Assembly: GCA_030530285.1 (NCBI GenBank)
Contig: JAUMVD010000001.1
Span: 26,273 to 90,272 of the forward strand
DNA: 64,000 nucleotides
DNA from: Bacillota bacterium
GTDB taxonomy: Bacteria > Bacillota > Clostridia > Peptostreptococcales > Anaerovoracaceae
Direction: 5' to 3'
The notes beneath the pieces are model-generated. The model had not been told where the DNA came from and did no database searches. It worked only from the letters and a program-made list of their open reading frames with translations. The position numbers were made by a program, and so were the translations under genes. This document shows, one piece after another, positions 1-39,176 of the stretch (positions within the stretch are counted from its first letter, which is position 1; the number at the start of each line of letters is the position of its first letter).

Positions 1-570
1 GCGTCGAAGGTAGAATATATGAAAATGGCCGCCTTGTTCCACGACATCGGCAAGCCGGACACATTTTTTATCGGTGAGGATGGCATCGGCCACATGTACG
101 GACATCCGGCGAGAGGTGAGGAAATCGTCAGAGAGATCATGGCGGATATGAAGGCGGACAGGTTCACCACAGAGAAGGTGGCGCTGCTGGTCAAGTACCA
201 TGATCTGGTGTTTCAGAATGACAGAAAACTGCTTAAGAAATGGATGAATAAATACGGCGCGGAGCTTTTGCTGGAAATCCTGCACATCAAGCGGGCGGAT
301 AATATCGCAACCGGGAATATGAGCGGTGAGCTTGCCGATAAGTTTGATGCCGTGGAGCAAACGATAGCGGAAATCGTGGAGTCCAGTGAATGTTTCAGTA
401 TCAAAGACCTTGCCATTGACGGCAGAGATGTTACCGCGGCAATAAAAGAAGGACCTGAAGTAGGAATGATCCTGCAGCAGATCCTTGAAGAAGTCATAGA
501 TGGAAGTCTCGAAAACGATCGGGACGAGCTCCTGGCCCGGATGCGCGAACTCGTCAAATCCCTGCCTTGA
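1..570 (+). CDS. HD-domain C-terminal part of a tRNA nucleotidyltransferase/poly(A) polymerase-family (CCA-adding-like) protein; 5' end lies outside the window
   Basis: Frame 1 is open from nt 1 into listed ORF 19..570. HD signature AALFHDIGKP, then YGHP and HIKRADN. Confidence 0.6.
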   Translation, partial: ASKVEYMKMAALFHDIGKPDTFFIGEDGIGHMYGHPARGEEIVREIMADMKADRFTTEKVALLVKYHDLVFQNDRKLLKKWMNKYGAELLLEILHIKRADNIATGNMSGELADKFDAVEQTIAEIVESSECFSIKDLAIDGRDVTAAIKEGPEVGMILQQILEEVIDGSLENDRDELLARMRELVKSLP

Positions 571-1759: not shown

Positions 1760-1789
1760 CGTAATACCTCTTAAGGGATTGGATTATCA

Positions 1790-2095
1790 TCAGAAATACG
1801 TTTCTATATGTTTACGAACCAGCGACAAAGCGTTCTCATAGCCGCCGGCATCTTCCCAGTCGCCCGAGATATAATATTTAACGAGATTGTAGATCCGGTC
1901 TCTGTAATAATCCAGAGCGCCTTCCAGATTCCGGCCTTCTGTGATGAGCTGGCGTACATCCGCAGGGGAGTAGTCAATCGTAATTGTTCCGCGTTTCTTA
2001 CCGGTCTCATCGGATTCTGATTCCGTAACATCGATGATGGCCAGTTCGCATCGGCTGCCGAATTCCAGTACGGGTTCCAATCTGATTTTTCGCAT
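1790..2095 (-). CDS. hypothetical protein (101 aa)
   Basis: Listed ORF 1790..2275 trimmed to the ATG at 2095. That ATG is preceded by AAGGAGG (reverse strand); the upstream extension has no RBS. Confidence 0.5.
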   Translation of the reverse strand: MRKIRLEPVLEFGSRCELAIIDVTESESDETGKKRGTITIDYSPADVRQLITEGRNLEGALDYYRDRIYNLVKYYISGDWEDAGGYENALSLVRKHIETYF

Positions 2096-2268
2096 GGTGT
2101 CCTCCTTGTTGATGATGAAAGTATTATACATCATAATTGGCAGGTGGTAAATCAAGCAGATTCTTCTGAATGTCCTCTGCCTCATTATATGGTTATTTCT
2201 ATGCAAATCAAAGAAAGAATCGAGCAATGCAGACAAAAGAACCAATATTCTGAATACGATCAAAAGCA

Positions 2269-2296
2269 TTGACACAAGCTGATGAACTGTGATAAT
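2269..2296 (+). promoter_or_regulatory. sigma-70-type promoter (TTGACA, 16-nt spacer, extended -10 TGtGATAAT)
   Basis: TTGACA at 2269-2274 and TGTGATAAT at 2288-2296. The listed ATG at 2282 lies inside this promoter. Confidence 0.5.
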
Positions 2297-2338
2297 TTTT
2301 TCCCGGCCGCGCGGGAGGCGTGCCGGAAGGGAATGACG

Positions 2339-2548
2339 ATGAGGAAAGACAACGTCACGGAAGAATACGTGAAATTCGAAAATGAGGACGGGATCCTGAA
2401 AGACTACGATCCTGACCTTGTGAGGATAGATGAAGAAGAAAGCCTAAGAGAGGATCTCTCAGGCTATGTTTATGAGAACAAAGAGGGGGACAGCAGGCAA
2501 TACCTGCCGCAGACGCTGTCGGAAAAAAGCCCTGTCATCGCGATCTGA
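2339..2548 (+). CDS. small acidic hypothetical protein (69 aa)
   Basis: Listed ORF 2282..2548 trimmed to the ATG at 2339, which follows GGAAGGG by 7 nt. Confidence 0.4.
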   Translation: MRKDNVTEEYVKFENEDGILKDYDPDLVRIDEEESLREDLSGYVYENKEGDSRQYLPQTLSEKSPVIAI

Positions 2549-2550
2549 TA

Positions 2551-2814
2551 ATGGGAGTAGTCGATAGCTACAATCAGGGGAGAGGTTTTAAAGGGATTGT
2601 TGATGATTTCGTAGTCAACGCGACGTTTGTGGTTGCAGGACTGGTTATTGGAGCGGTTGTTACAACATTAGCGACATCAATAATTGGAAGCGTTGCTGTA
2701 GGTGCTTTTGTAGGTCTGATTGTAAGCAGTGCGGTTAGTGATGCAACTGAAAGGTTTGGGTTAAAGAAACGCTATAGGAAAGGAGTGAAATACATCAGTA
2801 ATGAATTACTATAA
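2551..2814 (+). CDS. small Gly/Ala/Val-rich two-TM membrane peptide (87 aa), translationally coupled to the upstream ORF
   Basis: The ATG lies 2 nt after the upstream TGA and has no RBS of its own. Hydrophobic stretch VVAGLVIGAVVTTLATSIIGSVAVGAFVGLIVSSAV, then a basic tail KKRYRKGVK. Confidence 0.4.
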   Translation: MGVVDSYNQGRGFKGIVDDFVVNATFVVAGLVIGAVVTTLATSIIGSVAVGAFVGLIVSSAVSDATERFGLKKRYRKGVKYISNELL

Positions 2815-2886
2815 GAATGTTGAGGACTTCATTTCCCATAGGGAGTTGCAAGATACGAAAAGATAAAATGGAAAGGGATACTCGGA

Positions 2887-3438
2887 ATGGCAGTATTTAG
2901 CATTATTTGCTCATTGCTGATGTGCCGGGGCCCCCTGATTTATGTTATCAGTGCATTGAATATTGCAGTTGTAATAGTATTATTAGTGATAATACACTCC
3001 CGCAAAGTAAAGTATATATTTTTTTTCGAGGGTCTACAGGGGCTAATTCTTTTGTTTAGTCTTGCTTCTGCTATCAGTGCTTTAATTATTGGCTCCGGAG
3101 GACACGCAAAGTATAAAGTGTTTTTTATAGCAGTATTGGTTTGGATCATAACAGCAGTGATAGAAGTGATACTAACAAGGAGAAGAATCAGGAAGGGGTA
3201 TTATGCCCTAAACAAAATATATAAAAGTAATAGGGAAGATTTATTAGTTGTAGTAGCTCCGGGCTGTTATCTCGCCTACAAACTAGGGGGAGAAATGGAT
3301 TCAACTGTAATATTTGAGGGGTTTCTGATCCTGTTTCTGGTGTTTGTCATAAAAATTGTCGAATCTTTCATGATGCATTACTATGTAAATAAATATGACC
3401 TTGAGGATAAGATCAGAATCGGAGATGTCAGAACCTGA
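2887..3438 (+). CDS. polytopic membrane protein (183 aa), immunity-like by position
   Basis: Several hydrophobic segments. AT-rich codon usage differs from the flanking genes. Confidence 0.5.
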   Translation: MAVFSIICSLLMCRGPLIYVISALNIAVVIVLLVIIHSRKVKYIFFFEGLQGLILLFSLASAISALIIGSGGHAKYKVFFIAVLVWIITAVIEVILTRRRIRKGYYALNKIYKSNREDLLVVVAPGCYLAYKLGGEMDSTVIFEGFLILFLVFVIKIVESFMMHYYVNKYDLEDKIRIGDVRT

Positions 3439-3447
3439 TTGGGTTGA

Positions 3448-4455
3448 CTGACACTGAGAAGATACGGCTTTTACTACTGCAACGCCAGGTATTATGACTC
3501 TCATGATGCGTGCTTTACCAGCATGGATACCTACAGAGGTGACGGTACGCTTCCTCTTACCCTGAACCTTTACATCTACTGCGGCGGGAATCCCATCAAC
3601 TTCACTGACCCGACAGGGCATTCATTTTTGGGGAAGATCTTCAAAAAAGCTAAACGTGTCGTAAGGAAGGCCTTCAGAGCAGTAAAAAGATCTGTAAAGA
3701 GGACGGTCAAAAGAGCCGTCAGGTCAGTCCGAAACAAAGCGAGAGCCGCATCATCAAAGATAAAGGCCGTAAAGAAAAAATTAAAGAAGAAGAGAAAGAA
3801 GAATATACCAACTATGAAAAGTCAAGGGAATAATCAGAAGAAAAGTAAAAGTATGAAATATGAAATTGTTGACATCTCTGTACTGCCGGAGAACTTAAAA
3901 GACCCAAGGGACTTGACAAAGAAAGAAGTTCAAAGAATGTTTGATTGGTATATCGATCAGAAGGATAAAAGGATAGAGATATTAAGAGAATGGGTAAATC
4001 ATACTTCAGATCATCCCATCACTTTTGATTACACACCGGAATCTTTGATAGATATATGGGAATGGTTTGAGGAACGTATGCAGAAAAAGAAAAGGACCCG
4101 GGAAGAGATCCTTGAAGAGAGAAAAGATAACCCGGAATGGATGTACGAATATATACCCGATGATAAGTTCACATATGAGACACTAAGTTATATATATGAC
4201 ATTGCGTATTACTTTGGTGAGGTCATGGTCAGGAACAATCCGGAACTGTACTGGGGGTATTTCACAAAGCCGAGGAACTATGCAGATGTCAATGAGCCTG
4301 TAGTGTTGGGGTTCATTAAGAAGAAGTCTCTTAACCCGCGAAGAATAGTAAATGTTTGCGCGTTGAAATCATGGGATAAAAGAAATAAAGAAGAGGTATA
4401 TGAAACATACAATGTTTGGAAATCATATATACAGCTCACGAGTAAAACAGAATAA
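3448..4455 (+). pseudogene. 5'-truncated RHS/YD-repeat core tail, continuing into a Lys/Arg-rich segment and a ~200-aa domain
   Basis: The frame is open from 3448 and reads LTLRRYGFYYCNARYYDSHDACFTSMDTYRGDGTLPLTLNLYIYCGGNPINFTDPTGH. This matches the RHS core end motif (RYYDxxxGRFxSxDP ... NLYxYxxNNPxxxxDPxG). There is no upstream YD repeat and no start codon before the ATG at 3523. Confidence 0.65.
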
Positions 4456-4546
4456 TGTAAGTACTGAACAAATGTATTATGACACAAACAGTAAAAATGG
4501 AAAGGAGAGTATGATTTAGCTTCTAACTAATCATACAAGCAAAAAA

Positions 4547-5218
4547 ATGAGGATGGATATAGAAAAAGAAGTTGATCAATACTTAGAGGTTATATTAGGG
4601 AAAAATATAGTGGAAGGGCATTTCAAAGCTCACAGTATCGCGCTGTTTGTTTTATGGTGTGTTATTATTTTGGGCTTGAATGCATTTTCGATAATGTGCC
4701 TCAAGCATTGGTGGCCATTGTCTTTTGGATTTTTCATTGTTGTAATACTAATGATAAAGGCAGGGAGCCTAATTCGGAAAAAAGACTATTCGTGGTTCTT
4801 ATATATTCCATATGTGGGGACGGGTCTCATCTTATCATTACTATCCATACTAGCAGGAGTAAGGAGCCTTGAGGTTAGCACTCTTTATTATTTGGTAACA
4901 ATGGCAGTATTTGTTGGTGGGGCGGTGTCGTTTTCACGCATTTTGTTTAAGTCTCTTATGAAACAAATTGAAACAAAAACGACTAAGGACACGTCTTCTG
5001 GTTATGGCGGAATTTCAACCATGCTGGGTCTAATTGCGGCAACCTTTTCGATGGTAATAGCAGAACGGATGTCATCTCCGACGCAGGCCCTTTTTTTTGC
5101 CATTGCACTAGCATTTGTTCAGGGCTGTAATATATATTTTATAACACCGTATGTATTAGGCAAACAATATGATCCGAGCGGAGAACTTATTGCGAAAATC
5201 AGACAAAAGAACGGTTGA
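4547..5218 (+). CDS. polytopic membrane protein (223 aa), immunity-like by position
   Basis: At least five hydrophobic segments and AT-rich codon usage. There is no SD at 4547; an in-frame SD-driven ATG-ATT-TAG sits at 4511-4519. Confidence 0.5.
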   Translation: MRMDIEKEVDQYLEVILGKNIVEGHFKAHSIALFVLWCVIILGLNAFSIMCLKHWWPLSFGFFIVVILMIKAGSLIRKKDYSWFLYIPYVGTGLILSLLSILAGVRSLEVSTLYYLVTMAVFVGGAVSFSRILFKSLMKQIETKTTKDTSSGYGGISTMLGLIAATFSMVIAERMSSPTQALFFAIALAFVQGCNIYFITPYVLGKQYDPSGELIAKIRQKNG

Positions 5219-5302
5219 CACCTGCACTCCAACGATGTATTATGTTAATGCAATATTGTTTTAACGCAATAAAGCAATCAGAGGAGAAAGGAGGCGTCTG
5301 AT

Positions 5303-5446
5303 ATGACCATTATAGTGAAGGACGATAAGGGCGAAGTCGTCATCGAGAAGGAAGTTGACGCGAAGGAATGCAGGATCGATATTACCGAGAGTCTGAACGG
5401 TCAGATCCAGTGCTCCGTCCAGCAGATGATTGCTTCAATACATTGA
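5303..5446 (+). CDS. small ORF (47 aa), not in the ORF track
   Basis: The ATG at 5303 lies 7 nt after GGAGAAAGGAGG. Peptide MTIIVKDDKGEVVIEKEVDAKECRIDITESLNGQIQCSVQQMIASIH. A terminator follows. Confidence 0.4.
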   Translation: MTIIVKDDKGEVVIEKEVDAKECRIDITESLNGQIQCSVQQMIASIH

Positions 5447-5470
5447 TCGGGACATTGATCGCATTGATCA

Positions 5471-5492
5471 GGAGGCCTGCGGGCCTCTTTTT
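5471..5492 (+). terminator. rho-independent terminator
   Basis: GAGGCC-TGCG-GGCCTC followed by TTTTT. Confidence 0.7.
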
Positions 5493-5530
5493 ATATTGTC
5501 AGAAACTGGAATATGCGTTAAAATATAACC

Positions 5531-5767
5531 ATGAATATGATGAATTTTGAGAGTATTTTCAAAGTCATGCAGGCGAAGGATACGTTCATGAGAAACCATC
5601 CTAAGATGGAACGATTCATAGGCAATGTCCAGGCCAAAGGCTTTTGCGAAAATCAGGAGATAGCTGTAGCGGTACGCTATCCCGACGGAACTGAATACAA
5701 GACAGGCATCAGAGTGACGCAGTCGGATCTGGAACTTCTCAATGCCCTGAAGAACATCAAGGGGTAG
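5531..5767 (+). CDS. small hypothetical protein (78 aa) coupled to rluB
   Basis: The ORF ends 3 nt before the rluB ATG. No function recognised. Confidence 0.45.
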   Translation: MNMMNFESIFKVMQAKDTFMRNHPKMERFIGNVQAKGFCENQEIAVAVRYPDGTEYKTGIRVTQSDLELLNALKNIKG

Positions 5768-5770
5768 GCT

Positions 5771-6475
5771 ATGAGATTGAATAAGTATATTGCCTCTGCA
5801 GGCGTATGCAGCAGGCGTAAGGCCGACGAACTCATCGCCAATGGGAACGTGAAGGTCAATCACGCTGTCGTTCGCGAGATGGGTTTTGATGTGGGCGAGG
5901 GCGACAGAGTCGTCGTCAATGGCAAACTGATCGACGGAAGTAAACCTAAGGTCTATGTCGCCGTGAACAAACCCATGGGATACATCACGTCCATGGACGA
6001 CGATAAAGACAGAGCGACGGTCGCGGAGTTGGTGGCGGATATTCCCGAGAGATTATTTCCTGTGGGCAGACTGGACTATAATACGACGGGGCTTTTGCTG
6101 ATGACCAACGACGGTGAGCTGACGTACGCGCTGACGCACCCCAAACACGAGGTCGGTAAAACATATGTCGCTACGGTTGCCGGCGTGCTGTCGGATAAGA
6201 GAATCGCGCAGCTCAGGCGCGGCGTCGATATCGGCGGATTCGTAACATCCCCTGCGAAGGTGAAAGTGATCAGGCAAAACCCGCGCTCCACCGTTGTGGA
6301 GATCACCATACACGAGGGGAAGAACCGTCAGGTGCGTAAGATGTTCGCGGCGGTAGGAAACAGAGTCCAGTCTCTGCAGCGCATCGCGGTGGGCGATATC
6401 AGACTGGGCAGACTCAAAGAAGGTCACTACAGGAAGCTGACCAGGAATGAGATAGAATATTTAAAAACACTATAG
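5771..6475 (+). CDS. rluB: 23S rRNA pseudouridine synthase, RsuA/RluB family
   Basis: S4 domain MRLNKYIASAGVCSRRKADELI, catalytic motif VGRLDYNTTGLLL, and KNRQVRKM. Confidence 0.85.
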   Translation: MRLNKYIASAGVCSRRKADELIANGNVKVNHAVVREMGFDVGEGDRVVVNGKLIDGSKPKVYVAVNKPMGYITSMDDDKDRATVAELVADIPERLFPVGRLDYNTTGLLLMTNDGELTYALTHPKHEVGKTYVATVAGVLSDKRIAQLRRGVDIGGFVTSPAKVKVIRQNPRSTVVEITIHEGKNRQVRKMFAAVGNRVQSLQRIAVGDIRLGRLKEGHYRKLTRNEIEYLKTL

Positions 6476-7357: not shown

Positions 7358-7747
7358 TTATTTTCTCTTCATTTCTTTAGGGGTAACGCATGTTCCGGAA
7401 GCTCTGGCTACTACGATAGGCTCTTCCAGGAAATCAGCTGCTGAGTCATTGATGTCCTTTCTGGAAACAATGACTTTTCTTGCTTCAAATACCATGTGTC
7501 TTGAAGTGTTACCAATCTTATCTATCTCACCGTATGCTTCGATATAGTCGCCAGCATAAGTCGGTGCCAGGAATTCAACATTGTCATATGCGCAGAAGAG
7601 GCCCTCGTCTCCGTCCAGCTTGATCAGCAGTTCTGTAGCAACATCACCAAAGAGGTGTACCATGTGCGCGCCGTCTACCAGTTCGCCGCCGTAGTGGGCA
7701 TCTTTCGCTGACATTCTGAGTCTTAAAGTTGAAGTGATCTTTTCCAT
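7358..7747 (-). CDS. kal: hotdog-fold protein, probable 3-aminobutyryl-CoA ammonia-lyase
   Basis: 129 aa from the ATG at 7747, which follows AAAGGAG. Size and position beside kdd/kamA/kamDE match Kal of the lysine fermentation pathway. Confidence 0.6.
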
Positions 7748-7799
7748 GTTCAATCTCCTTTTCATTTATACGTTGTTATTTTACCACACTTTTTATTTA

Positions 7800-7817
7800 T
7801 TGCAAAAGCAATGCCAA
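7800..7817 (-). promoter_or_regulatory. sigma-54 (-24/-12) promoter driving kal
   Basis: Reverse strand reads TTGGCAT-TGCTT-TTGCAA, which is TGGCAY-N5-TTGCW with exact spacing, about 50 nt upstream of the kal ATG. Confidence 0.7.
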
Positions 7818-7877: not shown

Positions 7878-9950
7878 ATGAACAGTTATGGACTCGACAG
7901 GGTGATATCGCCCAAACAGGTATTTCCGGCATCGGCCTGGGAACTGGACAACAGCAGCGAACTAAAGCCGGGAGAAATGCGCATCGGATTAAGACGCGTG
8001 CACGTTGAGAGCACCAGCTTCAGGCAGATCTGCCAGGAGGCGGCCAACGACGAGGATCTGATCAAAGAAAAGATAAAGGATATTGTCATCCGGCGCGGCA
8101 AGCTCCACAATCCCATTACGGATACGGGCGGTCTGTTCTACGGCTTCATCGAAGAGATCGACAGTCGGTACGAAAATGAAAAAGGCCTGAAGGTAGGAGA
8201 TGAGGTGATCTGCAACGCCTCGCTGGCGGGAGTGCCTTTGTTTATCAACAGTATCACTTCTATCGACAAAACATACCCTCAGTTTGAGGCGGACGGGTAT
8301 GCCATCGCGCTGCCCGGCGTGCCCATCATCAAAAAGCCCGAGGGAATGCCCATGGATCTGCTGCTGTTTACCTTCAACGAGTCCGGGACCATATATAAAG
8401 TAGGCAGAGAAGCGGCGGGCAAGAGCCGGTTTGCCATCATCGGCAATAACATGCTCATGTCGCTGCTCTACGGATACACGGTGAGACAGGCGGCAGGACC
8501 TGACGCGGAGGTCTACTGCGTGCTGGACAGAAACACGGACATCACGATGCAGGGCGATGGACTCAATGAGATCATGGGGCAGGTATTCACCCAGGTTTCC
8601 TACCATAACCTGATGAAACCGGTGGCTTGTCTCAGGAGCTTCAGCAAATATCCCGGCATGGATATGGTGGTGAACTGCGCGGATATTCCCGGTGCGGAGA
8701 CGGTCAGCGTGATGGCCACCAAATCCGGAGGGACCGTTGTATTCGCTAACTTCATCAGCAACTATAATATGGCCCTGTATATCACGGAAGCCATATCCAG
8801 AGATATCCGCATCACCTGCGCCGAAGGGTACCTGGAGGAGTATGACGAGTACGACTTCGAGATCGTGAAGGGCATCGCGCCTTACATCGACGGCGCCATG
8901 GTTCCGAGAAACAAGATGAAGCGCAAAGGCTTCCGGTCGGAGACGGACAAGGCGGTCTTCGATCACTACAACCACTACGATATCTCCGTGGCGGAGGATC
9001 TGGTTGCTGTGAGCAAAAAGATGCACGAAGTTCTGGATGAGATCATGAGCGTATCCCGTTATGACTGCAACGTCCTGATCACGGGAGAAACAGGCGTAGG
9101 TAAGGAAAAGGTGGCGAATATCATACAGAAAAACAGCGCCAGGAAAATGCAGCCGTTCGTCAAGATCAACTGCGCGTCCATACCGCCGAATCTGATGGAA
9201 TCGGAGTTCTTTGGTTATGAGAAAGGCGCATTTACAGGAGCAGACGCGAAGGGCAAACGCGGGTATTTCGAAGTTGCGGAAGGCGGCGTCATCTTCCTGG
9301 ATGAGGTGGGGGAACTGCCTCTTGATATCCAGGCCAAGCTTCTCAGAGTCATCCAGGACGGAGAATTCATGCGGGTCGGCGGCACGAAACCGGTCAAGAC
9401 CAACGTGAGGATTTTATCGGCCACCAACAGGGATCTGGAGGAACAGGTGCGGAACAAAGCCTTCCGAAGGGATCTGTATTACAGGTTGAACGTATTCCCG
9501 ATCAATGTGCCGGCGCTGGACGAGAGGAAGGATGATATCCCGCCGCTGGTGGACAATTTCATCAGGAAATACAACGAGAAATTCGGCATCAATAAGTTTA
9601 TGGACGACGATGCCAAGGATTATCTGGCGGCCCAGAGCTGGCCGGGCAACATCAGGGAATTGGAAAATGTGACCCAGAGACTTATGATCTCAAGTCCCAA
9701 CGACATGATCACGCTGGTCGATGTCATGAAAGAGCTGGGAGGAGACCTGATCAGCGCTGCCGATCTGGACGCGCAGGTCAAGCAGCTGGAGGAAGGAGAG
9801 ATTGGCCTGACCAAGGCGGTGGAGTCATTCGAAAAGGCGATCATACAGAACGCCTGCAAGAAATACGGATCCACCAGAAAGACGGCCAAGGCCATAGGAA
9901 TCTCCCAGACGCAGCTGGTGAGAAAAAAGAACAAATACGAAATAGGATGA
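7878..9950 (+). CDS. sigma-54-dependent transcriptional activator with an N-terminal Kdd-like (3,5-diaminohexanoate dehydrogenase-like) domain
   Basis: AAA+ domain with GETGVGKE, GAFTGA, VIFLDEVGEL and RDLYYRLNV. C-terminal Fis-type HTH STRKTAKAIGISQTQLVRK. Residues ~1-345 align by eye along the full length of the Kdd encoded at 10250. Confidence 0.85.
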   Translation: MNSYGLDRVISPKQVFPASAWELDNSSELKPGEMRIGLRRVHVESTSFRQICQEAANDEDLIKEKIKDIVIRRGKLHNPITDTGGLFYGFIEEIDSRYENEKGLKVGDEVICNASLAGVPLFINSITSIDKTYPQFEADGYAIALPGVPIIKKPEGMPMDLLLFTFNESGTIYKVGREAAGKSRFAIIGNNMLMSLLYGYTVRQAAGPDAEVYCVLDRNTDITMQGDGLNEIMGQVFTQVSYHNLMKPVACLRSFSKYPGMDMVVNCADIPGAETVSVMATKSGGTVVFANFISNYNMALYITEAISRDIRITCAEGYLEEYDEYDFEIVKGIAPYIDGAMVPRNKMKRKGFRSETDKAVFDHYNHYDISVAEDLVAVSKKMHEVLDEIMSVSRYDCNVLITGETGVGKEKVANIIQKNSARKMQPFVKINCASIPPNLMESEFFGYEKGAFTGADAKGKRGYFEVAEGGVIFLDEVGELPLDIQAKLLRVIQDGEFMRVGGTKPVKTNVRILSATNRDLEEQVRNKAFRRDLYYRLNVFPINVPALDERKDDIPPLVDNFIRKYNEKFGINKFMDDDAKDYLAAQSWPGNIRELENVTQRLMISSPNDMITLVDVMKELGGDLISAADLDAQVKQLEEGEIGLTKAVESFEKAIIQNACKKYGSTRKTAKAIGISQTQLVRKKNKYEIG

Positions 9951-9977
9951 AACATGATCATCATTAAAGGAGATTGG

Positions 9978-10011
9978 ATATGCGAACCGATTTTGGTTCG
10001 CATATTTTTTG
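9978..10011 (+). terminator. rho-independent terminator of the activator gene; its stem also contains GAACC-N6-GGTTC (site 2)
   Basis: ATATGCGAACC-GATTTT-GGTTCGCATAT followed by TTTTTT. Confidence 0.7.
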
Positions 10012-10139: not shown

Positions 10140-10157
10140 TTGGCATACAAGTTGCTT
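10140..10157 (+). promoter_or_regulatory. sigma-54 (-24/-12) promoter of the kdd-kamA-...-atoA operon
   Basis: TTGGCAT-ACAAG-TTGCTT, with GG at 10142-43 and GC at 10154-55. It lies about 95 nt upstream of the kdd ATG. Confidence 0.75.
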
Positions 10158-10249: not shown

Positions 10250-11317
10250 ATGAAACACGGAAGCCCTTACGGAACACACAGAGTTATTTCACCAAAAGGC
10301 GTACTGCCACAGCCTGCAGATGTCATCGACAACACGATGGAAATCTATGACAACGAAGTTCTGATCGACGTACAGACACTGAACATCGACTCAGCTTCAT
10401 TCACAGAGATCGTCAGAAGATCATGTGACGGCAAGAAGCCTGTTGACATCGACAATTCACCTGAAGATCAGGAAAAAGTTAAGAAGACAATGATGGAAAT
10501 CGTTGCCAAGGCCGGTAAGCACAAGAACCCTTGGACAGGTTCCGGCGGCATGCTGATCGGTACAGTTAAGGAAATCGGACCTGCTTACGAAGGCGACCTG
10601 AAGGTTGGCGACAAGATCGCAACTCTGGTTTCACTGTCACTGACTCCGCTGGTAATCGAAGAGATCCACGAAATGAGACCTGGAATCGATCAGGTTGACA
10701 TTACCGGACAGGCAATCCTCTTCCAGAGCGGTATCTATGCAGTACTTCCGGATGATATGCCGGAAGGTCTGGCACTGTCAGCACTGGACGTTGCAGGAGC
10801 TCCTGCACAGGCTGCGAAACTGTCACACCCTGGCGACACGATCCTGGTTATCGGCGGCGGCGGCAAGTCAGGTCTTCTCTGCCTGTATGAAGCAAAGAAG
10901 AGAGCTGGCGTAACCGGTAAGGTAATCTGCGCTGCAGGTTCACAGAAATCAGAAGACAGAGCCAGAAATCTGGATCTGGCAGACGAATACTTCCACATGG
11001 ATGCAACGGATGCAGTCGGAATGTATGAGAAGATCATGGAGCTGACTGACGGCAAACTGTGTGACGTTGTTATCAACTGCGTAAACATCCCGAACACAGA
11101 AATGGCATCCATCCTTTCCTGTAAGGATGACGGCGTAGTTTACTTCTTCTCAATGGCAACTGACTTCACAAAGGCAGCCCTGGGCGCAGAAGGCGTTGGC
11201 AAGGACGTAAACATGATGGTAGGAAACGGATACACCAAGGGCCACGCAGCAATCACTCTGCAGGTTCTCAGAGAGCACGAAGGCATCAAGAAGCTCTTTG
11301 AAGAAATGTATGCGTAA
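10250..11317 (+). CDS. kdd: L-erythro-3,5-diaminohexanoate dehydrogenase
   Basis: 355 aa with Rossmann loop VIGGGGKSGLL. It sits directly upstream of kamA, and strong SD AGGAGG precedes the ATG. Confidence 0.75.
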   Translation: MKHGSPYGTHRVISPKGVLPQPADVIDNTMEIYDNEVLIDVQTLNIDSASFTEIVRRSCDGKKPVDIDNSPEDQEKVKKTMMEIVAKAGKHKNPWTGSGGMLIGTVKEIGPAYEGDLKVGDKIATLVSLSLTPLVIEEIHEMRPGIDQVDITGQAILFQSGIYAVLPDDMPEGLALSALDVAGAPAQAAKLSHPGDTILVIGGGGKSGLLCLYEAKKRAGVTGKVICAAGSQKSEDRARNLDLADEYFHMDATDAVGMYEKIMELTDGKLCDVVINCVNIPNTEMASILSCKDDGVVYFFSMATDFTKAALGAEGVGKDVNMMVGNGYTKGHAAITLQVLREHEGIKKLFEEMYA

Positions 11318-11374: not shown

Positions 11375-12634
11375 ATGGCTATTAGAAATTGGAAAGACAT
11401 TCCTCTCTTCAAGGATGTAACAGAGGAACAGTGGAACGACTGGCATTGGCAGGTCGCGAACAGACTGGATTCAGTAGAAAAGATCAAGCAGGTTGTGAAC
11501 CTTACTCCTGAAGAAGAGGCAGACATTGCTAAGGTTATGAACGGCTTCAGAGTTGGCATCACTCCATACTACGCTTCACTGATGGATCCTGATGATCCAC
11601 ACTGCCCGGTAAGGATGCAGGCGGTTCCTACACTCGCTGAAACTCACAGAGCAGAATCAGATATGCTGGACCCTCTTCACGAAGATGAAGACTCCCCGGC
11701 ACCTGGACTGACTCACAGATATCCTGACAGAGTTCTCTTCCTGATCACAGACCAGTGCTCCATGTACTGCAGACACTGTACGAGAAGAAGACTGGCAGGA
11801 GAAACTGATGGCGCCAGAAGCATGGACGACATCAATGCATGTATCGAATATATCCGTAAGACTCCTGTAGTAAGAGACGTTCTCCTCTCAGGCGGCGATG
11901 CGCTTTGCGTTGAGACTGACGTTCTCGAATACATCATCAGCGAGCTGAGAAAGATCGATCACGTTGAGATCGTAAGAATCGGATCCAGAACTCCTGTCGT
12001 TATGCCGCAGAGAATCACAGATGAGCTTTGCGATATGCTGAAGAAATATCATCCGATTTGGCTGAACACTCACTTCAATCACCCGAAGGAATTCACTCCG
12101 GAATCAGCAGAAGCATGCAGGAAGCTGGCAGACGCAGGAATTCCGCTCGGAAACCAGTCAGTACTCTGCAGAGGCATCAATGACGACGTACATGTCATGA
12201 GAAATCTGGTTCAGCTCTGCTGCAAGAACAGAGTTCGTCCGTACTACATTTATCAGTGCGACCTGTCACTGGGTATTGAACACTTCAGAACTCCTGTCGC
12301 AAAGGGCATCGAGATCATCGAAGGACTCAGAGGTCACACATCAGGTTATGCGGTACCGACATTTGTCATCGACGCTCCCGGCGGCGGCGGCAAGACTCCG
12401 GTAATGCCGCAGTATGTCATTTCACAGACTCCTGATAAGGTTATCCTGAGAAACTACGAAGGCGTTATCACGACTTACACCGAGCCGTCCAACCTGCCTC
12501 CGCTTCAGTGCAGCTACGAGAACTGCAAGAACATCGAAGATTATCACTATGAAGGTGTTGCAGGACTGGCACAGGGCGAAAGAATGTCAATGGAACCGGC
12601 TCATCTGCTGAGACACGAAAGAAACAAGAAATAA
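11375..12634 (+). CDS. kamA: L-lysine 2,3-aminomutase (radical SAM, PLP)
   Basis: CSMYCRHCTRRR cluster motif, LLSGGDAL, and a typical 419-aa length. Confidence 0.9.
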   Translation: MAIRNWKDIPLFKDVTEEQWNDWHWQVANRLDSVEKIKQVVNLTPEEEADIAKVMNGFRVGITPYYASLMDPDDPHCPVRMQAVPTLAETHRAESDMLDPLHEDEDSPAPGLTHRYPDRVLFLITDQCSMYCRHCTRRRLAGETDGARSMDDINACIEYIRKTPVVRDVLLSGGDALCVETDVLEYIISELRKIDHVEIVRIGSRTPVVMPQRITDELCDMLKKYHPIWLNTHFNHPKEFTPESAEACRKLADAGIPLGNQSVLCRGINDDVHVMRNLVQLCCKNRVRPYYIYQCDLSLGIEHFRTPVAKGIEIIEGLRGHTSGYAVPTFVIDAPGGGGKTPVMPQYVISQTPDKVILRNYEGVITTYTEPSNLPPLQCSYENCKNIEDYHYEGVAGLAQGERMSMEPAHLLRHERNKK

Positions 12635-12638
12635 TTAA

Positions 12639-13649
12639 ATGTACCTATTAGAAGAATTATCACAGAAATACAAGAGAATATCTATAGTCGGCATGGCGAA
12701 AAACGCCGGCAAGACTACAGCGCTGAATTACCTTATAGAGGAGGCCATGGACGAAGGCATCGCCCTGGGCGTCACTTCTACAGGCAGAGACGGCGAAGGA
12801 ACAGATGTTGTCACGGGTACTGACAAACCTCGTGTATTTCTGGATACAGACACTATCGTATCGGTGCCAACACAGCTTTATGAGCTGGCAGACGCCGGCC
12901 TGGAGATCGTTAAGATGACTGAATACGGCTCGTCACTGGGGCAGATCATGCTCTGCAGAGTTGTCAGCAGCGGATACGTGCAGGTAGCAGGGCCGGTAAT
13001 CAACGCGCAGCACATCAAGATGTGTGAAGAAATGATCCGGTTAGGTGCCCAGCTGGTGCTTATAGATGGTGCGATAGACAGGAAATCTATCGCGGCACCG
13101 GGGACATCGGATGCGATAATCCTGTCCACAGGAGCGGTTTTATCGAGAAAAATGAGCAGAGTCGTAGAGGAGACGGCGCATACCGTCAACCTCTACCGCC
13201 TGCCTTGTCTCGAGGATGGACGGGAGAGAGAATTATTGACCGGAGAGAGCGAAAATATCCTCCTGATCAGGGATGGGGAACTGGTGGCCCTCGATCTGAA
13301 CACAGGCCTTGGCGCAGGGAGATTCCTGGACGCCAAGATCGATGATAAGGTCAGCCACATCTATGTTCCGGGGGCGTTTACACAAAGCATTGTTTCGGAC
13401 ATCAATCCTAAGAAATTAAAGAACGTCACATTCGTGCTCAAAGATCCTACGAAGATCTTTATCGGAGCTACGATGTGGAATCAGTTCAGAAAAAAGGGAC
13501 TTACGGTAAAGGTGCTCGAAAATATCAATGTTGCAGCGATCACAGTAAACCCCACATCGCCGGGAGGCTATTCGTTCGATCATGAAAGTTTGCTGAACGC
13601 CATGCAGGAAGCGATTCCGGATATACCTGTTCTGGATGTACGTATGTAG
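12639..13649 (+). CDS. P-loop NTPase of unknown function embedded in the kam operon
   Basis: Walker A VGMAKNAGKTT near the N-terminus. Tightly packed between kamA and the MutS-like gene. Confidence 0.6.
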   Translation: MYLLEELSQKYKRISIVGMAKNAGKTTALNYLIEEAMDEGIALGVTSTGRDGEGTDVVTGTDKPRVFLDTDTIVSVPTQLYELADAGLEIVKMTEYGSSLGQIMLCRVVSSGYVQVAGPVINAQHIKMCEEMIRLGAQLVLIDGAIDRKSIAAPGTSDAIILSTGAVLSRKMSRVVEETAHTVNLYRLPCLEDGRERELLTGESENILLIRDGELVALDLNTGLGAGRFLDAKIDDKVSHIYVPGAFTQSIVSDINPKKLKNVTFVLKDPTKIFIGATMWNQFRKKGLTVKVLENINVAAITVNPTSPGGYSFDHESLLNAMQEAIPDIPVLDVRM

Positions 13650-13658
13650 GAGACCGAG

Positions 13659-15296
13659 ATGTCTATAGCTGTAAAGAGACTGGCAAATCAAAAGACAAGA
13701 CGTGAAACAGGGCTGGACTATGTCGTTTCCGCCATGAATCTGCTGACTCCCTTTGGAAGCAAGCAGATCAAAGAGCAGAAGCCGTTTTTCCCGGGGCAGG
13801 AGGGAGCCCTGGAAGAAGAGCTTTTGCGCGTAGAGAAGATGGTTGATACGGCGGAAGCGAACAGCAGAGAAATAGGCGTGCTGCAGGAAACATTCATGAT
13901 GTTAAAGGACAACACCTTCACCATCGAGAGAAGTGAGAATTCGGTGCTGTCCGTCGTAGAGATCTTTGAGATCAAAAATCTGCTGCTGCTGATGGAGAAA
14001 ATCAGAGGCATCAGCGGCAGGATAGAATTGCCTGGCGAATTCGTGCCCGAAGATGTGACCGAGCTGCTGGACGTGCTCGATCCGGGCGGAGATAGGCTCA
14101 ATACCTTTTACATTTATGATTCTTTTTCCGAGAAGCTTGCGGAGCTCAGGAAAGAAAAGAAGCAGATGGACAGGGAAATCAGAGTCAGACAAAAGGCGCT
14201 GAAATCAGAGATCCAGAAAACGTATGGCTTGGTGCTCACACCCAAATTCGATATCACCGTATCGAGGAGCGACGAAGCCGGTATAAAAATGATAGAAGAG
14301 ATTTCCGATTTGACGAAATCGGATGAAGACTATATGTCAGTAACCTACACTCTCGTGCCCGGCGAAGACGTTCAGGAGCTTTTGCGAAAATCGGACGATA
14401 TTTCGGCGGACATTGAGGAAGAAGAGCTGAGAGTGCGGGAAATACTGTCAAAGGAAATCCACAAACATGCAGAACTGCTTCTGGACAATTGCGATCGGAT
14501 CGGCAAGCTGGACATCGTTCTGGCAAAGGCTTTGTACGCCATATCGCATCACTGCGTACGCCCTGAGATCGTCCGGGAGCACGTGGTGGAATTTACGGAC
14601 GGCAGGCATCTGCAGGTAGAAGAGATCATCAAGAAAAAAGGCGGGGAATACTGCCCCGTTAGTATATCTCTAAGTGATGGGGTAACATGCATTACGGGAG
14701 CCAATATGGGGGGAAAGACCATTTCGCTGAAACTCACCGGAATGGTCGCCATCCTGGCTCAGTACGGATATTTCGTCCCGTGCAAAAGCGCGCGGGTAGG
14801 TCTCAGCAATTTCATGCAGATACTGATCGGGGACAGTCAGTCGATCGAGAGAGGACTCTCCAGTTTCGGAAGCGAGATGGAAGAACTGAAGGAGATCATG
14901 GACAACAGCACGGACAGATCGCTTTTGCTCATCGATGAGATCGCCAGCGGAACAAATCCGGTAGAGGGACTGGCGCTCACGAAGAGCATCGTTGACTATC
15001 TCAAAGGCAAGGCGTTCATCTCCCTGATCACCACTCATTTCGAGACGGTGACGGCGGATAAGGACGTCGTCAATATGCAGGTCACGGGACTTGCGAATGT
15101 GGATTTCGACAAACTAAACAGGGAGATCAGGTACGCAAACAGGCGCGAGAGGATCGGGATCATCCAGAAGTACATGGATTACCGCCTGACGCGGGTTGAC
15201 GACGCTGCCGAGATCCCTAAAGATGCCTTGAACATAGCGAAGATGCTGGGCATCGATGACAGCATTATAGAAAAGGCAAAACAGTACATAGTTTAA
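13659..15296 (+). CDS. MutS-family ATPase (domain V only; no mismatch-binding or Smr domain)
   Basis: ITGANMGGKTISLK (Walker A), LLLIDEIASGTNPVEG (Walker B/signature), TTHF. The N-terminal ~300 aa are helical and charged. Confidence 0.75.
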   Translation: MSIAVKRLANQKTRRETGLDYVVSAMNLLTPFGSKQIKEQKPFFPGQEGALEEELLRVEKMVDTAEANSREIGVLQETFMMLKDNTFTIERSENSVLSVVEIFEIKNLLLLMEKIRGISGRIELPGEFVPEDVTELLDVLDPGGDRLNTFYIYDSFSEKLAELRKEKKQMDREIRVRQKALKSEIQKTYGLVLTPKFDITVSRSDEAGIKMIEEISDLTKSDEDYMSVTYTLVPGEDVQELLRKSDDISADIEEEELRVREILSKEIHKHAELLLDNCDRIGKLDIVLAKALYAISHHCVRPEIVREHVVEFTDGRHLQVEEIIKKKGGEYCPVSISLSDGVTCITGANMGGKTISLKLTGMVAILAQYGYFVPCKSARVGLSNFMQILIGDSQSIERGLSSFGSEMEELKEIMDNSTDRSLLLIDEIASGTNPVEGLALTKSIVDYLKGKAFISLITTHFETVTADKDVVNMQVTGLANVDFDKLNREIRYANRRERIGIIQKYMDYRLTRVDDAAEIPKDALNIAKMLGIDDSIIEKAKQYIV

Positions 15297-15309: not shown

Positions 15310-16866
15310 ATGAAAAGCAAACTGAACCTGGACCCTAAAAAGGTTGATCATGCTCGAAACAGCGCTGCCAAGATCGCTAAGAGCATGCAGGAATTCATCG
15401 ACAGGCACACTACAGTAAGTACGGAGAGAACCATTCTCAGACTTCTGGGTGTTGACGGTGTCGATGAGGTAGATACTCCACTGCCGAATGTGGTAGTTGA
15501 CCAGATCCTCGATGCGGGCGGCCTGCCAAGGGGTGTTGCGTATTGGATTGGAAATGCTATGATCCAGACCGGCAAAGAGCCGCAGGAAATAGCTGAGGAA
15601 ATGGCCGCAGGTAATCTGGACGTGACGAAGCTGCCGCTGGCTTCAAAGGAAGAAGCGGAAGCCAAGATCATGCCTAAGGTACACGAAGCATTAAAGACTA
15701 TCAGGGCACAGACAGAGAAACGAAATGAGTATCTGGCCACTATCGGAGAAGGCAGAAGGCCGTATCTGTATGTAATCGTTGCTACAGGTAATATCTACGA
15801 AGACGTCGTTCAGGCACAGGCTGCGGCGAGACAGGGCGCTGATATCATCGCCGTTATCAGAACCACCGCGCAGTCACTGCTGGACTACGTTCCTTATGGA
15901 CCTACGACTGAAGGTTTCGGCGGCACATATGCCACGCAGGAAAACTTTAGAATCATGAGAAAAGCGCTTGACGAGGTTGGTGAAGAAGTCGGCAGATATA
16001 TCAGACTTTGCAACTACTCATCAGGAATGTGCATGCCTGAAATCGCTGCAATGGGAGCTATCGAGAGACTGGATGTCATGCTCAATGACGCGCTCTACGG
16101 AATCCTGTTCAGAGACATCAACATGCAGAGAACACTGGTAGACCAGTACTTCTCCAGAGTCATTATCGGTTACTGCGACATTATCTTCAACTCAGGTGAA
16201 GATAACTATCTGACTACAGATGACGCGTATGAAAACGCGCATACCGTTCTGGCGTCACAGCTGATCAACGAACAGTTCGCCGTACTGGCAAACGTTAAAG
16301 AAGAGCAGATGGGTCTCGGCCACGCCTTCGAGATGGATCCGGATATCGAGAACGGATTCCTCTATGAACTGGCACAGGCCGTCATGGCCAGGGAGATCTT
16401 CCCGAACGCTCCTCTGAAGTACATGCCTCCAACGAAGTACATGACAGGAAATATCTTTAAGGGCAATGTACAGGACGCGCTGTTCAACATGATCGCGATC
16501 TGGTCAGGACAGTCACTGCAGCTTTTGGGTATGCTGACAGAAGCCATCCACACACCGCATATGCATGACAGATACCTCTCCATCGAAAATGCGCAGTACA
16601 TTTTCAACAATATGAGAGATATCGGATCAGAAGTGGAATTCAAAGAGGGCGGTATCATCCAGTCCAGAGCGCAGCTCGTACTGGACAAGGCGGATAAGCT
16701 CCTGGAAGAGATCGTCGAAGAAGGTCTGTTCTCAACAATTGAACAGGGTAAGTTCGGCGGAGTCAAGAGACCTAGAGATGGCGGAAAAGGACTCAGCGGC
16801 GTTTGCGTCAAGGATGACGAGTACTTCAATCCGTTCATTCCACTCATGTTAGGAGGTGCAGAATAA
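15310..16866 (+). CDS. kamD: lysine 5,6-aminomutase alpha subunit
   Basis: 518 aa TIM-barrel-type sequence, immediately followed and overlapped by the B12-binding subunit gene. Confidence 0.8.
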   Translation: MKSKLNLDPKKVDHARNSAAKIAKSMQEFIDRHTTVSTERTILRLLGVDGVDEVDTPLPNVVVDQILDAGGLPRGVAYWIGNAMIQTGKEPQEIAEEMAAGNLDVTKLPLASKEEAEAKIMPKVHEALKTIRAQTEKRNEYLATIGEGRRPYLYVIVATGNIYEDVVQAQAAARQGADIIAVIRTTAQSLLDYVPYGPTTEGFGGTYATQENFRIMRKALDEVGEEVGRYIRLCNYSSGMCMPEIAAMGAIERLDVMLNDALYGILFRDINMQRTLVDQYFSRVIIGYCDIIFNSGEDNYLTTDDAYENAHTVLASQLINEQFAVLANVKEEQMGLGHAFEMDPDIENGFLYELAQAVMAREIFPNAPLKYMPPTKYMTGNIFKGNVQDALFNMIAIWSGQSLQLLGMLTEAIHTPHMHDRYLSIENAQYIFNNMRDIGSEVEFKEGGIIQSRAQLVLDKADKLLEEIVEEGLFSTIEQGKFGGVKRPRDGGKGLSGVCVKDDEYFNPFIPLMLGGAE

Positions 16867-17636
16867 TGGCAGAATGCAACACAGCAGTAGCTCAGATCGA
16901 TCTGACGAAAGTAAAGCCATATGGCGACACGCTTAACGATGGTATGACAGAAGTTGCTTTCACGCTTCCTGTACCTTACGGTGATGAAGCGAATGAAGCG
17001 GCAAAGATCCTGGCGAAGAAGATGGGACTCGATGAGCCTAACGTAGTATACGCCAAGGAAATGACAAAGGAATACACATTCTTCGTAGTATACGGCAAAT
17101 GCCAGCATACGGTTGACTACACTACCATTAAGGTAGCAAAGGTTGACGTAGATGTGATGGATAGGTTAGAATGTGCTGAGTACATTAAAGAAAATATCAA
17201 GAGACCTGTAGTGATCGTCGGCGCATCCACCGGTACAGACGCGCACACGGTAGGTATCGACGCGATCATGAACATGAAGGGCTTCCACGGCCACTTCGGT
17301 CTCGAAAGATATGAAGGCATCGAAGCATACAATCTGGGTTCACAGGTTCCAAACGAAGATCTTATCGCAAAGGCCAAGGAAGTACATGCGGACGCGATTC
17401 TGGTTTCACAGACGGTTACACAAAAGGATATCCACATCGAAAACCTGACCAACATGGTTGAACTCCTCGAAGCGGAAGGCATGAGAGATAAGGTCATTCT
17501 GGTTTGCGGCGGTCCTAGAATATCGCATGAACTGGCTCAGGAACTGGGTTATGATGCGGGTTTTGGTCAGCATAAGTACGCAGAAGACGTAGCGTCATTT
17601 GTTCTGACTGAAATCGTGAACAGGAATATGATTTAA
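16866..17636 (+). CDS. kamE: lysine 5,6-aminomutase beta subunit (B12- and PLP-binding)
   Basis: Cobalamin DxHxxG motif GTDAHTVGID. ATGA overlap with kamD. Confidence 0.8.
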   Translation: MAECNTAVAQIDLTKVKPYGDTLNDGMTEVAFTLPVPYGDEANEAAKILAKKMGLDEPNVVYAKEMTKEYTFFVVYGKCQHTVDYTTIKVAKVDVDVMDRLECAEYIKENIKRPVVIVGASTGTDAHTVGIDAIMNMKGFHGHFGLERYEGIEAYNLGSQVPNEDLIAKAKEVHADAILVSQTVTQKDIHIENLTNMVELLEAEGMRDKVILVCGGPRISHELAQELGYDAGFGQHKYAEDVASFVLTEIVNRNMI

Positions 17637-17665: not shown

Positions 17666-18391
17666 ATGTTCAACAAGATTTTAACAGCTGATGAAGCGGT
17701 AGCTGGCGTAGAAGACGGCATGACCATAATGGTCGGTGGATTCCTCGGCACAGGCTCACCTGAGGTTCTCATGGACGCGCTGGTAAGAAAGGGCGTCAAG
17801 CACCTGACTGTCATTGGTAATGACGGCGGACTGGCTGAGGGTCAGCCTGCAGGAGAATTTGCAGGCAAAACTCCGAGAGGCATCGGTAAGCTTTTGGAAA
17901 ACCATATGGTAGATCACGTCATCATGTCACATGTAGGTGTAAACCCGAGACTGAATGAACAGTTTGCAGACGGCAGCCTGAAGTACACACTGGTTCCACA
18001 GGGCACTCTGGCAGAAAAGATCAGAGCCGCGGCATACGGCCTGGGCGGAGTCCTCACTCCGGTAGGTCTGGGAACGCCGATGGAAACGGAACTGGATGAG
18101 CTGGGCAGAAAGAAAGAAGTCATGGTTATCGATGGTAAGAAGTACCTCTTCGAAAGACCTCTTCACGCGGATTATTCGTTCATCAGAGCAACTATGGCTG
18201 ACAAATTCGGCAACTATATGTGTTCCAAGGCAACGAGAAACTTTAACCTCGTCATGGCCGGAGCAGCAGACCACACCGTTATCGCAGCAGAGAAACTGGT
18301 CGAAGTCGGATCCGTTGATCCTGACATCTGGCAGGTAGCCGGAGTACTGGTTGAGTCTATCGTGGAAGGAGAACCAAAATGGCAGATTTAA
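17666..18391 (+). CDS. atoD: acetoacetate/butyrate CoA-transferase subunit A
   Basis: MTIMVGGFLGTGSPE N-terminus typical of 3-oxoacid CoA-transferase A subunits. Confidence 0.75.
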   Translation: MFNKILTADEAVAGVEDGMTIMVGGFLGTGSPEVLMDALVRKGVKHLTVIGNDGGLAEGQPAGEFAGKTPRGIGKLLENHMVDHVIMSHVGVNPRLNEQFADGSLKYTLVPQGTLAEKIRAAAYGLGGVLTPVGLGTPMETELDELGRKKEVMVIDGKKYLFERPLHADYSFIRATMADKFGNYMCSKATRNFNLVMAGAADHTVIAAEKLVEVGSVDPDIWQVAGVLVESIVEGEPKWQI

Positions 18392-19035
18392 AAGCAAGAA
18401 TCGCAAAGAGATGCGCGAAGCACTTCAAAGATGGTGACTTCATCAATCTGGGAATCGGCCTTCCGACTATGGTAGCGGATTATCTTCCTGAAGACGTTAT
18501 CATCACCTGCCATTCCGAGAACGGATTTGCAGGCATCGATATCCTGGCTGACCAGGAAACACTGGATGTTAATATCATCAATTCAGGCGGACAGTACGTA
18601 ACAGCGCTGCCAAGAGCCAAGTTCTTTGACACAGCAGAGAGTTTCGGCCTGGTTAGAGGCGGACACGTAAAGGCTACCGTTCTGGGCGCTATGGAAGTTG
18701 CCGAAAACGGAGACCTGGCAAACTGGATCGTTCCTGGCAAGAAAGTTGCCGGAATGGGCGGAGCCATGGACCTTTGCGTAGGATGTCCTGAAGTAATCAT
18801 CACCATGCTTCACACACAGAAGGGCAACCACAAGATCAAGAAGGAATGCACACTGCCGCTGACTGCAGAAAAGTGCGTAACAAACATCATCACAGAGATG
18901 GCAGTGATGAAAGTTACCGACGAAGGAATCGTAGTAACGGAACTGCACCCTGACTACACTAAGGAAGAAGTTCAGGAAGCAACCGGCGTTGAACTGATCT
19001 GGTCACCTGATCTGAAGCCTTACGATGAGACCTGA
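18379..19035 (+). CDS. atoA: acetoacetate/butyrate CoA-transferase subunit B
   Basis: Catalytic-Glu motif CHSENG. Overlaps the subunit A gene. Confidence 0.75.
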   Translation: MADLKARIAKRCAKHFKDGDFINLGIGLPTMVADYLPEDVIITCHSENGFAGIDILADQETLDVNIINSGGQYVTALPRAKFFDTAESFGLVRGGHVKATVLGAMEVAENGDLANWIVPGKKVAGMGGAMDLCVGCPEVIITMLHTQKGNHKIKKECTLPLTAEKCVTNIITEMAVMKVTDEGIVVTELHPDYTKEEVQEATGVELIWSPDLKPYDET

Positions 19036-35827: not shown

Positions 35828-35939
35828 GTACAGTAATAAAGCAAATAGCTCATTGCAAACCCCAAGTGAAAGGACTATCATTTAAACAGATTGAATAAAA
35901 TAACACTGATGTAGTTATTAGATTTTGGAGGTAACACTA

Positions 35940-37226: not shown

Positions 37227-37253
37227 GAAAAACTTACACTTTCATCAACTCAT

Positions 37254-37285: not shown

Positions 37286-37351
37286 TGTACGCTTTAATGT
37301 GCTAAAATATTTCTGGGAAGAGCGCTTCCCGGAAAGGGAGTATAGTAAGAA

Positions 37352-39173: not shown

Positions 39174-39176
39174 TGG

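Follow-up and report, generated by a model that had tools for sequence, protein, structure and literature searches.

The adjacent genes kamB and kamC, carried by a 64,000-nucleotide stretch of DNA from a Bacillota bacterium of the family Anaerovoracaceae (contig JAUMVD010000001.1, positions 26,273 to 90,272; hereafter the window, from whose first letter all positions below are counted), probably encode the accessory 'E2' system that keeps lysine 5,6-aminomutase KamDE active. KamDE is an enzyme dependent on both adenosylcobalamin (AdoCbl) and pyridoxal phosphate. The reactivase assignment draws its support from curated families, gene context and early enzyme studies; in curated annotation, it is already known. 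The two genes belong to a sigma-54-driven operon ordered kdd-kamA-kamB-kamC-kamD-kamE-ctfAB, the central part of which is as follows:

11375 to 12634, + strand: kamA, radical-SAM lysine 2,3-aminomutase of the AblA type (TIGR03820, 601 bits)
12639 to 13649, + strand: kamB, P-loop nucleoside triphosphatase (NTPase) of 336 aa and 36.5 kDa, predicted reactivase subunit (NF052386, 380 bits)
13659 to 15296, + strand: kamC, MutS2-like ABC-type ATPase of 545 aa and 61.5 kDa (NF052383, 581 bits)
15310 to 16866, + strand: kamD (NF052384, 922 bits; Pfam Lys-AminoMut_A)
16866 to 17636, + strand: kamE (NF052385, 412 bits; Pfam OAM_dimer and B12-binding)

A preliminary description, made from the sequence alone, had placed two tightly packed genes between kamA and kamDE with gaps of 4–13 nt, and this was confirmed here: kamB started 4 nt past the kamA stop, while gaps of 9 nt and 13 nt separated kamB from kamC and kamC from kamD, respectively. 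Ribosome-binding sites of the AGGAG type were found upstream of kamC and kamD.

Family assignment and enzymological background

Both proteins were compared with the equivalog models of NCBIfam release 20. KamB matched NF052386 ('lysine 5,6-aminomutase reactivase subunit KamB', cut-off 210 bits) with 380.2 bits, its residues 14-334 covering positions 1-326 of the 326-position model. KamC matched NF052383 ('lysine 5,6-aminomutase reactivase ATPase KamC', cut-off 300 bits) with 581.2 bits, residues 18-544 corresponding to model positions 2-508 of 508. The window genes are thus ordinary, full-length members of the KamB and KamC families; no difference from these families was detectable, and the context was the expected one, with kamB 1.66 kb upstream of kamD. 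The annotation is therefore left unchanged and the genes are simply kamB and kamC. The role of B12-mutase chaperone or reactivase proposed in the preliminary description agrees with both equivalogs, whose cut-offs were well exceeded, whereas two of its epithets had to be dropped: the MutS-like ATPase is not 'truncated', being complete and belonging to a family of its own, and the P-loop protein is no longer 'uncharacterised', NCBIfam and RefSeq already naming it KamB.

The RefSeq entry of the orthologue from Aminicella lysinilytica (WP_133527450.1), for instance, is called 'lysine 5,6-aminomutase reactivase subunit KamB'. Older records for homologues of the two proteins read 'hypothetical' or 'MutS-related'. 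Their closest relatives were found in metagenome-assembled genomes (MAGs) of Anaerovoracaceae from rumen and gut. The KamB family comprised 1948 representative clusters at E<=1e-3, and KamB and KamC each have thousands of homologues; with families of this size, the two open reading frames (ORFs) are not chance occurrences.

The enzymology fits this assignment. Recombinant KamDE, the cobamide protein E1 of the older literature, is active and undergoes suicide inactivation in turnover, electron transfer leaving cob(III)alamin in the active site (PMC3958899, PMC9081730). The auxiliary sulfhydryl protein E2 of beta-lysine mutase and D-alpha-lysine mutase reactivates E1 with ATP (PMC3958899, PMC9081730), which is the activity expected of kamBC and corresponds to the ATP-dependent activating component that the preliminary description had mentioned. 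E2 was also reported to display AdoCbl synthetase activity, with label from [8-14C]ATP being transferred to E1 (PMC3958899).

Conservation of gene order

Gene neighbourhoods were surveyed from two anchors, the denominators being loci with enough flanking sequence. The kamB-anchored scan included 80 metagenome loci and relied on a consensus-first alignment of representatives at 50% identity, chosen for spread over lineages. The kamD-anchored scan included 80 genome loci, all of them Anaerovoracaceae-like with KamD at least 80% identical, and consequently says little on other phyla. Other lineages were reached through the metagenome scan seeded with the consensus and by looking up distant representatives one at a time.

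From the kamB anchor, kamC came next in 65/65 loci, kamA lay upstream in 65/65 and kamD downstream in 51/51. From the kamD anchor, kamC was directly upstream in 70 of 73 loci, kamB was present in 67 of 68 and kamA in 60 of 60. The co-occurrence with kamDE that the preliminary description had suggested surveying was hence recovered from either side. KamB proteins of only 31-36% identity were still encoded within operons of the type kal-kce-kdd-kamA-kamB-kamC-kamD-kamE, and published drawings of the clusters from Fusobacterium nucleatum, a Bacteroidetes contig and Ca. Cloacamonas display 'HP' and 'mutS' genes among lysine-fermentation genes (PMC3149608). The order kamA-kamB-kamC-kamD-kamE was conserved in essentially every fermentation-type locus examined.

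The three kamD loci scored as lacking kamC had different causes. One (L064) was an artefact: a stretch of N separating the genes yielded, in the stop-to-stop ORF list, an apparent KamC-KamD fusion of the Rosetta-stone kind, which was rejected. Another (L070) carried an insertion; at positions 440-3063 of this locus, two genes for secreted proteins (by eye, with copper-amine-oxidase-like and RCC1-like repeats) separated kamC from kamD and broke the otherwise fixed order. The third (L016, 9828-9985) was a true loss: an intact kamB was followed by non-coding DNA and then by kamD. The same arrangement was encountered in L015 (1228-1417), whose flank was too short for inclusion in the kamC count. 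In these two related MAGs, kamC was cleanly lost from the operon and only ~160-190 nt of non-coding sequence was left in its place.

KamB without KamC

A distinct subclade, accounting for 18 of 132 full-length KamB representatives, displayed another organisation. All tested members passed the NF052386 cut-off, and the gene order was kamD-kamE-kamB (kamE-kamB on short contigs) in eight independent contexts (covering L163, L165, L166/L167, L168, L169, L170-L172 and L174). In the local DNA available for these eight contexts, no kamA was found within 8 kb of kamB and no MutS-like gene nearby. The surroundings consisted of 2-oxoglutarate (2OG) oxygenase, DAO and DHDPS genes (L163, L166/L167), ATP-grasp and glycosyltransferase genes (L170-L172) or a gene for an AMP-binding enzyme (L174), while L165, L168 and L169 were short contigs. 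These clusters look unrelated to lysine fermentation and seem either biosynthetic or otherwise catabolic, which suggests a use of lysine 5,6-aminomutase beyond this pathway as well.

KamC accordingly appears to have been added specifically in the fermentation-type operon, and there is a hint that the one partner common to all KamDE-type mutases is KamB. The strongest rival to a joint KamB-KamC system builds on these observations: KamB by itself would be the mutase chaperone and KamC, having no part in reactivation as such, an add-on of lysine fermenters, for example the origin of the ATP-dependent allosteric activation described in the past, or a factor for assembly or stability. The subclade, in which a KamB passing the family cut-off directly follows kamDE with no MutS-like gene in any context seen, speaks for this possibility, as do L015 and L016 with their intact kamB. 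On the other side, kamB and kamC were adjacent in 65/65 fermentation-type loci, the ATPase motifs of KamC are strictly conserved (see below), NCBI curates KamC as the reactivase ATPase, and the exceptional genomes, of which only local DNA was seen, could encode kamC elsewhere. On balance we regard this alternative as unlikely.

Structural features of KamB

As the preliminary description stated, the 336-aa protein carries an N-terminal Walker A motif (GMAKNAGKTT, residues 18-27, with the core GMAKNAGKT at 18-26). It is followed by the segment TSTGRDGE (46-53), a Walker-B-like LIDGAIDR (141-148) and a C-terminal alpha/beta domain spanning residues ~186-336. In an alignment of 42 diverse KamB sequences, invariant or near-invariant positions were G18-x2-K21-N22-x-G24-K25-T26, T46-S47-x-G49-x-D51-G52-E53, D143-G144-A145-x2-R148, G165-A166 and, in the C-terminal domain, N304-P305. 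No NKxD motif was conserved in this alignment.

For KamB, Pfam yielded only a sub-threshold match to the P-loop family DUF1611 (16.7 bits, cut-off 25), and sequence and profile searches of the PDB yielded no solved close relative, only MobB (E 0.02-0.1) and cyclic 2,3-diphosphoglycerate (cDPG) synthetase (E 0.07) over ~50 residues. These sole sequence-level matches extended over the strand-loop-helix of the P-loop and a GRxGE-like segment after it; they were sub-threshold and their overall architecture is unlike that of KamB. The AlphaFold2 model was of high confidence (predicted local distance difference test, pLDDT, 92; predicted template modelling score, pTM, 0.89). Used in full as a Foldseek query, it gave weak matches to SIMIBI-class NTPases, namely Get3/ArsA, SRP54/FtsY and FleN (best E 1e-3, TM ~0.3). 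The C-terminal domain modelled alone (pLDDT 94) had no meaningful Foldseek match in the PDB (best E 0.15).

MeaB/MMAA, the G-protein chaperone of AdoCbl-dependent methylmalonyl-CoA mutase, is a SIMIBI-class P-loop NTPase that gates cofactor loading and ejects inactive cobalamin, and judging from the model, the best structural neighbours of KamB would also be SIMIBI NTPases. However, KamB had no match to MeaB or CobW families in Pfam or NCBIfam (E<=0.01), nor to the MeaB/ArgK G3E GTPases in the PDB profile search (E<=10), and their NKxD motif was not conserved. Its loop, GxxKNxGKT, resembles that of DUF1611 and cDPG synthetase, and it possesses the additional C-terminal domain. The reactivases DdrAB/GdrAB, EutA and GlmL, which act on suicide-inactivated AdoCbl enzymes (diol and glycerol dehydratases, ethanolamine ammonia-lyase and glutamate mutase) by ATP-dependent release of damaged cobalamin, are ATPases of the actin/Hsp70 fold. 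Neither KamB, with its modelled P-loop alpha/beta fold, nor the MutS-like KamC displayed any similarity to these ASKHA-fold reactivases in Pfam and PDB searches or, for KamB, in Foldseek.

CobA-type adenosyltransferases carry a P-loop, and so does KamB. A second rival, compatible with the E2 assignment, takes KamB to be or to contain an ATP:cob(I)alamin adenosyltransferase, which would regenerate AdoCbl at the enzyme or close to it. The Pfam scan of the window, which covered 46 of the 51 predicted genes of at least 110 aa (the other five being short), matched no cobalamin adenosyltransferase family, and such an activity in KamB would explain both the AdoCbl synthetase activity of E2 and the label transfer from ATP to E1 (PMC3958899). 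Against it, neither Pfam, NCBIfam and PDB sequence or profile searches nor the top 50 Foldseek matches, headed by Get3, SRP and FleN, linked KamB to CobA, PduO or EutT, and the old E2 preparation may have held a separate adenosyltransferase. This rival appears quite unlikely.

Client enzyme of KamB

As the fermentation operon always includes an adjacent kamA, position alone cannot separate KamA from KamDE as the client of the pair. A third rival accordingly holds that KamB and KamC serve KamA, possibly by insertion of its Fe-S cluster or by reductive activation, and the kamA gene did adjoin kamB in every fermentation-type locus. The eight contexts without nearby kamA argue otherwise, and a further example came from JGI metagenome 3300047160, in which a KamB-family protein (P0344, 283 bits against NF052386) was encoded beside a carrier protein, a P450, two thioesterases and both subunits of glutamate mutase (B12-binding and Met_asp_mut_E), another AdoCbl enzyme. 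Its occurrence next to kamDE without kamA, and once next to glutamate mutase, ties KamB to AdoCbl mutases and not to the radical-SAM enzyme KamA. The ATP-dependent accessory protein of the literature likewise belongs to the B12 enzyme (PMC3958899, PMC9081730), and a KamA client is very improbable. The single glutamate mutase example also hints that the KamB family serves this enzyme in a natural-product cluster.

Structural features of KamC

The motifs GANMGGKT and LLLIDEIASGT listed in the preliminary description were both present in the 545-aa KamC, and the absence of mismatch-recognition and Smr domains was confirmed: MutS_V (residues 344-525, E 2e-32) was the only Pfam match, with neither MutS domains I-IV nor Smr. 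The mutS2 model TIGR01069 scored 210 bits (cut-off 400) over model positions 36-454 of 790, an alignment to the N-terminal region of MutS2 and the ATPase domain, and the MutS models TIGR01070 and NF003810 scored 140 and 154 bits, far from their cut-offs of 642 and 480. Matches in the PDB were MutS, MutS2 and Msh3 at E ~1e-25, the alignment to Msh3 extending up to residue 540 and including the terminal helix-turn-helix.

Across 58 non-redundant KamC sequences (that of the window included), Walker A (345-353), D392/Q394, GLSxFGxE (399-406), D426-E427 and T459-H460 were invariant. This full set of catalytic motifs marks KamC as a predicted active ATPase of the dimeric MutS type. Invariant residues specific to this family were encountered in the N-terminal part (L97, K106, D141-P142, F150 and R164). 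Relative to MutS2 (RqcU) and MutS, KamC keeps Walker A and B, the signature-like SxF..E, the TH motif and the C-terminal helix-turn-helix, but it lacks domains I and II, KOW and Smr, scores below both family cut-offs and sits in a metabolic genomic context.

That KamC is a nucleic-acid-directed MutS2 paralogue, engaged in recombination control or ribosome rescue and present in the operon by accident, is hardly credible: its closest solved relatives are indeed MutS and MutS2 and its helix-turn-helix dimerisation motif is kept, but mismatch-binding, connector, KOW and Smr domains are missing, it keeps the same place between kamB and kamD in lineages far apart, and its N-terminal part has invariant residues specific to the family. 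The preliminary description had likewise held a DNA-repair role to be implausible. A defence-system reading was set aside, as PADLOC gave no meaningful match.

Proposed mechanism and points to be weighed

In the proposed scheme, KamB, consisting of a SIMIBI-class P-loop NTPase and a novel C-terminal domain, would dock on KamDE, probably on the B12-binding domain of KamE, which is the likely site of cofactor exchange. There it could act as a nucleotide-gated gatekeeper for cofactor exit and entry, a role resembling that of MeaB in a protein unrelated to it in sequence. A KamC dimer would function as a MutS2-like, ATP-driven lever or clamp pulling the B12 domain off the TIM barrel. This opening would let damaged cobalamin out and fresh AdoCbl in, and ATP hydrolysis would then release the complex.

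As to the division of labour, we tentatively entertain the idea of a class of B12-mutase chaperones, so far undescribed in structure, whose core would be KamB and not KamC. Such a class would combine a DUF1611/cDPG-synthetase-like SIMIBI P-loop with the C-terminal domain unmatched in the PDB; it would serve KamDE-type aminomutases in fermentative and biosynthetic clusters and possibly glutamate mutase. KamC would be an ATPase of MutS2 descent, taken up by lysine fermenters alone.

Several points weigh against equating kamB and kamC with E2. Literature searches turned up no open paper that names KamB or KamC or puts them to a direct experimental test, and the curated names may themselves rest on gene context and the old biochemistry. 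A published alternative exists: according to Tseng 2007 (via PMC3958899, PMC9081730), OraS brings back the effect of ATP in recombinant KamDE. The reviews do not state that E2 corresponds to KamB and KamC, and the masses disagree: E2 was estimated at ~80 kDa (PMC3958899, PMC9081730), as opposed to 98 kDa for a 1:1 combination of KamB and KamC (36.5 + 61.5 kDa), and a dimeric MutS-like component would raise this figure further. The older literature describes E2 as a sulfhydryl protein, while KamB has no conserved cysteine and those of KamC are only partly conserved (C344 in 76% of the 58 sequences); this clue is uninformative. KamC is not always required, given its loss in L015 and L016 and the KamB subclade without adjacent kamC, as far as local DNA goes. 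Finally, docking of the two proteins on KamDE is an inference.

Expression and neighbouring genes

The remaining features of the operon and its surroundings were the following:

7358 to 7765, - strand: kal, 3-aminobutyryl-CoA ammonia-lyase, divergent (NF052388, 187 bits)
7801 to 7816, - strand: sigma-54 promoter of kal (pattern match)
7878 to 9950, + strand: sigma-54 enhancer-binding activator (Pfam Sigma54_activat; NF052381 (Kdd), 121 bits, residues 5-170)
9976 to 10007: terminator with a 14-bp stem, between the activator gene and the kdd promoter
10141 to 10156, + strand: sigma-54 (-24/-12) promoter TGGCAT-N5-TTGCT upstream of kdd (pattern match)
10250 to 11317, + strand: kdd, 3,5-diaminohexanoate dehydrogenase, first gene of the operon (NF052381, 244 bits)
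17666 to 19035, + strand: ctfA/ctfB, CoA-transferase subunits A and B, last genes of the operon (Pfam CoA_trans; TIGR02429/TIGR02428)

The pattern TGGCAY-N5-TTGCW occurred only twice in the 64 kb, with 0.08 matches expected by chance. One match was located ~95 nt 5' of kdd and the other 36 nt 5' of kal. The terminator closes the end of the activator gene and separates it from the kdd promoter, and no strong terminator was found on the + strand between kdd and ctfB; kamB and kamC are co-transcribable with kamDE from the sigma-54 promoter. The activator is the likely regulator of the operon. Its N-terminus was homologous to the enzyme Kdd, and this domain may be a sensor derived from the pathway enzyme.

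Short metatranscriptome contigs from sheep and bovine gut, with 0-3 mismatches, fell inside kamB (12634-12984) and kamC (14545-14973), at a depth below that over kdd, kamA and parts of kamD and kamE. This supports transcription of both genes in vivo, although such contigs cannot prove a single transcript and carry-over of DNA is possible.

No kce (PF05853, BKACE) was matched in the Pfam scan of the window described above; in the more distant operons L161 and L164, kce adjoined kal and kdd. Elsewhere in the window, the stretch 34292-41623 included two AraC/cupin regulators, a saccharopine-dehydrogenase-like gene and a 793-aa glycyl radical enzyme (PFL-like and Gly_radical), for which no activase was recognised among the scanned ORFs. 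An adjoining ORF of 351 aa (41668-42723, - strand) had no Pfam match. Positions 2001-6000 displayed a GC content of 0.41, compared with ~0.50 elsewhere, and three ORFs without Pfam match (2887-5218); this segment may be foreign DNA.

Implications

Use of recombinant lysine 5,6-aminomutase as a biocatalyst has been limited by suicide inactivation, and a probable natural repair system is encoded right beside its genes. The parts of this system, a P-loop protein of MobB/DUF1611-like type and an ATPase resembling MutS2, differ from those of every other known B12 reactivase, and no structure or open mechanistic study of either turned up. A minimal system is suggested by those loci in which kamB accompanies kamDE and kamC is missing. 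If KamB does form the core of the chaperone, KamC would offer an uncommon example of a clamp with the MutS fold that acts on an enzyme, remodelling it, instead of on DNA or the ribosome.

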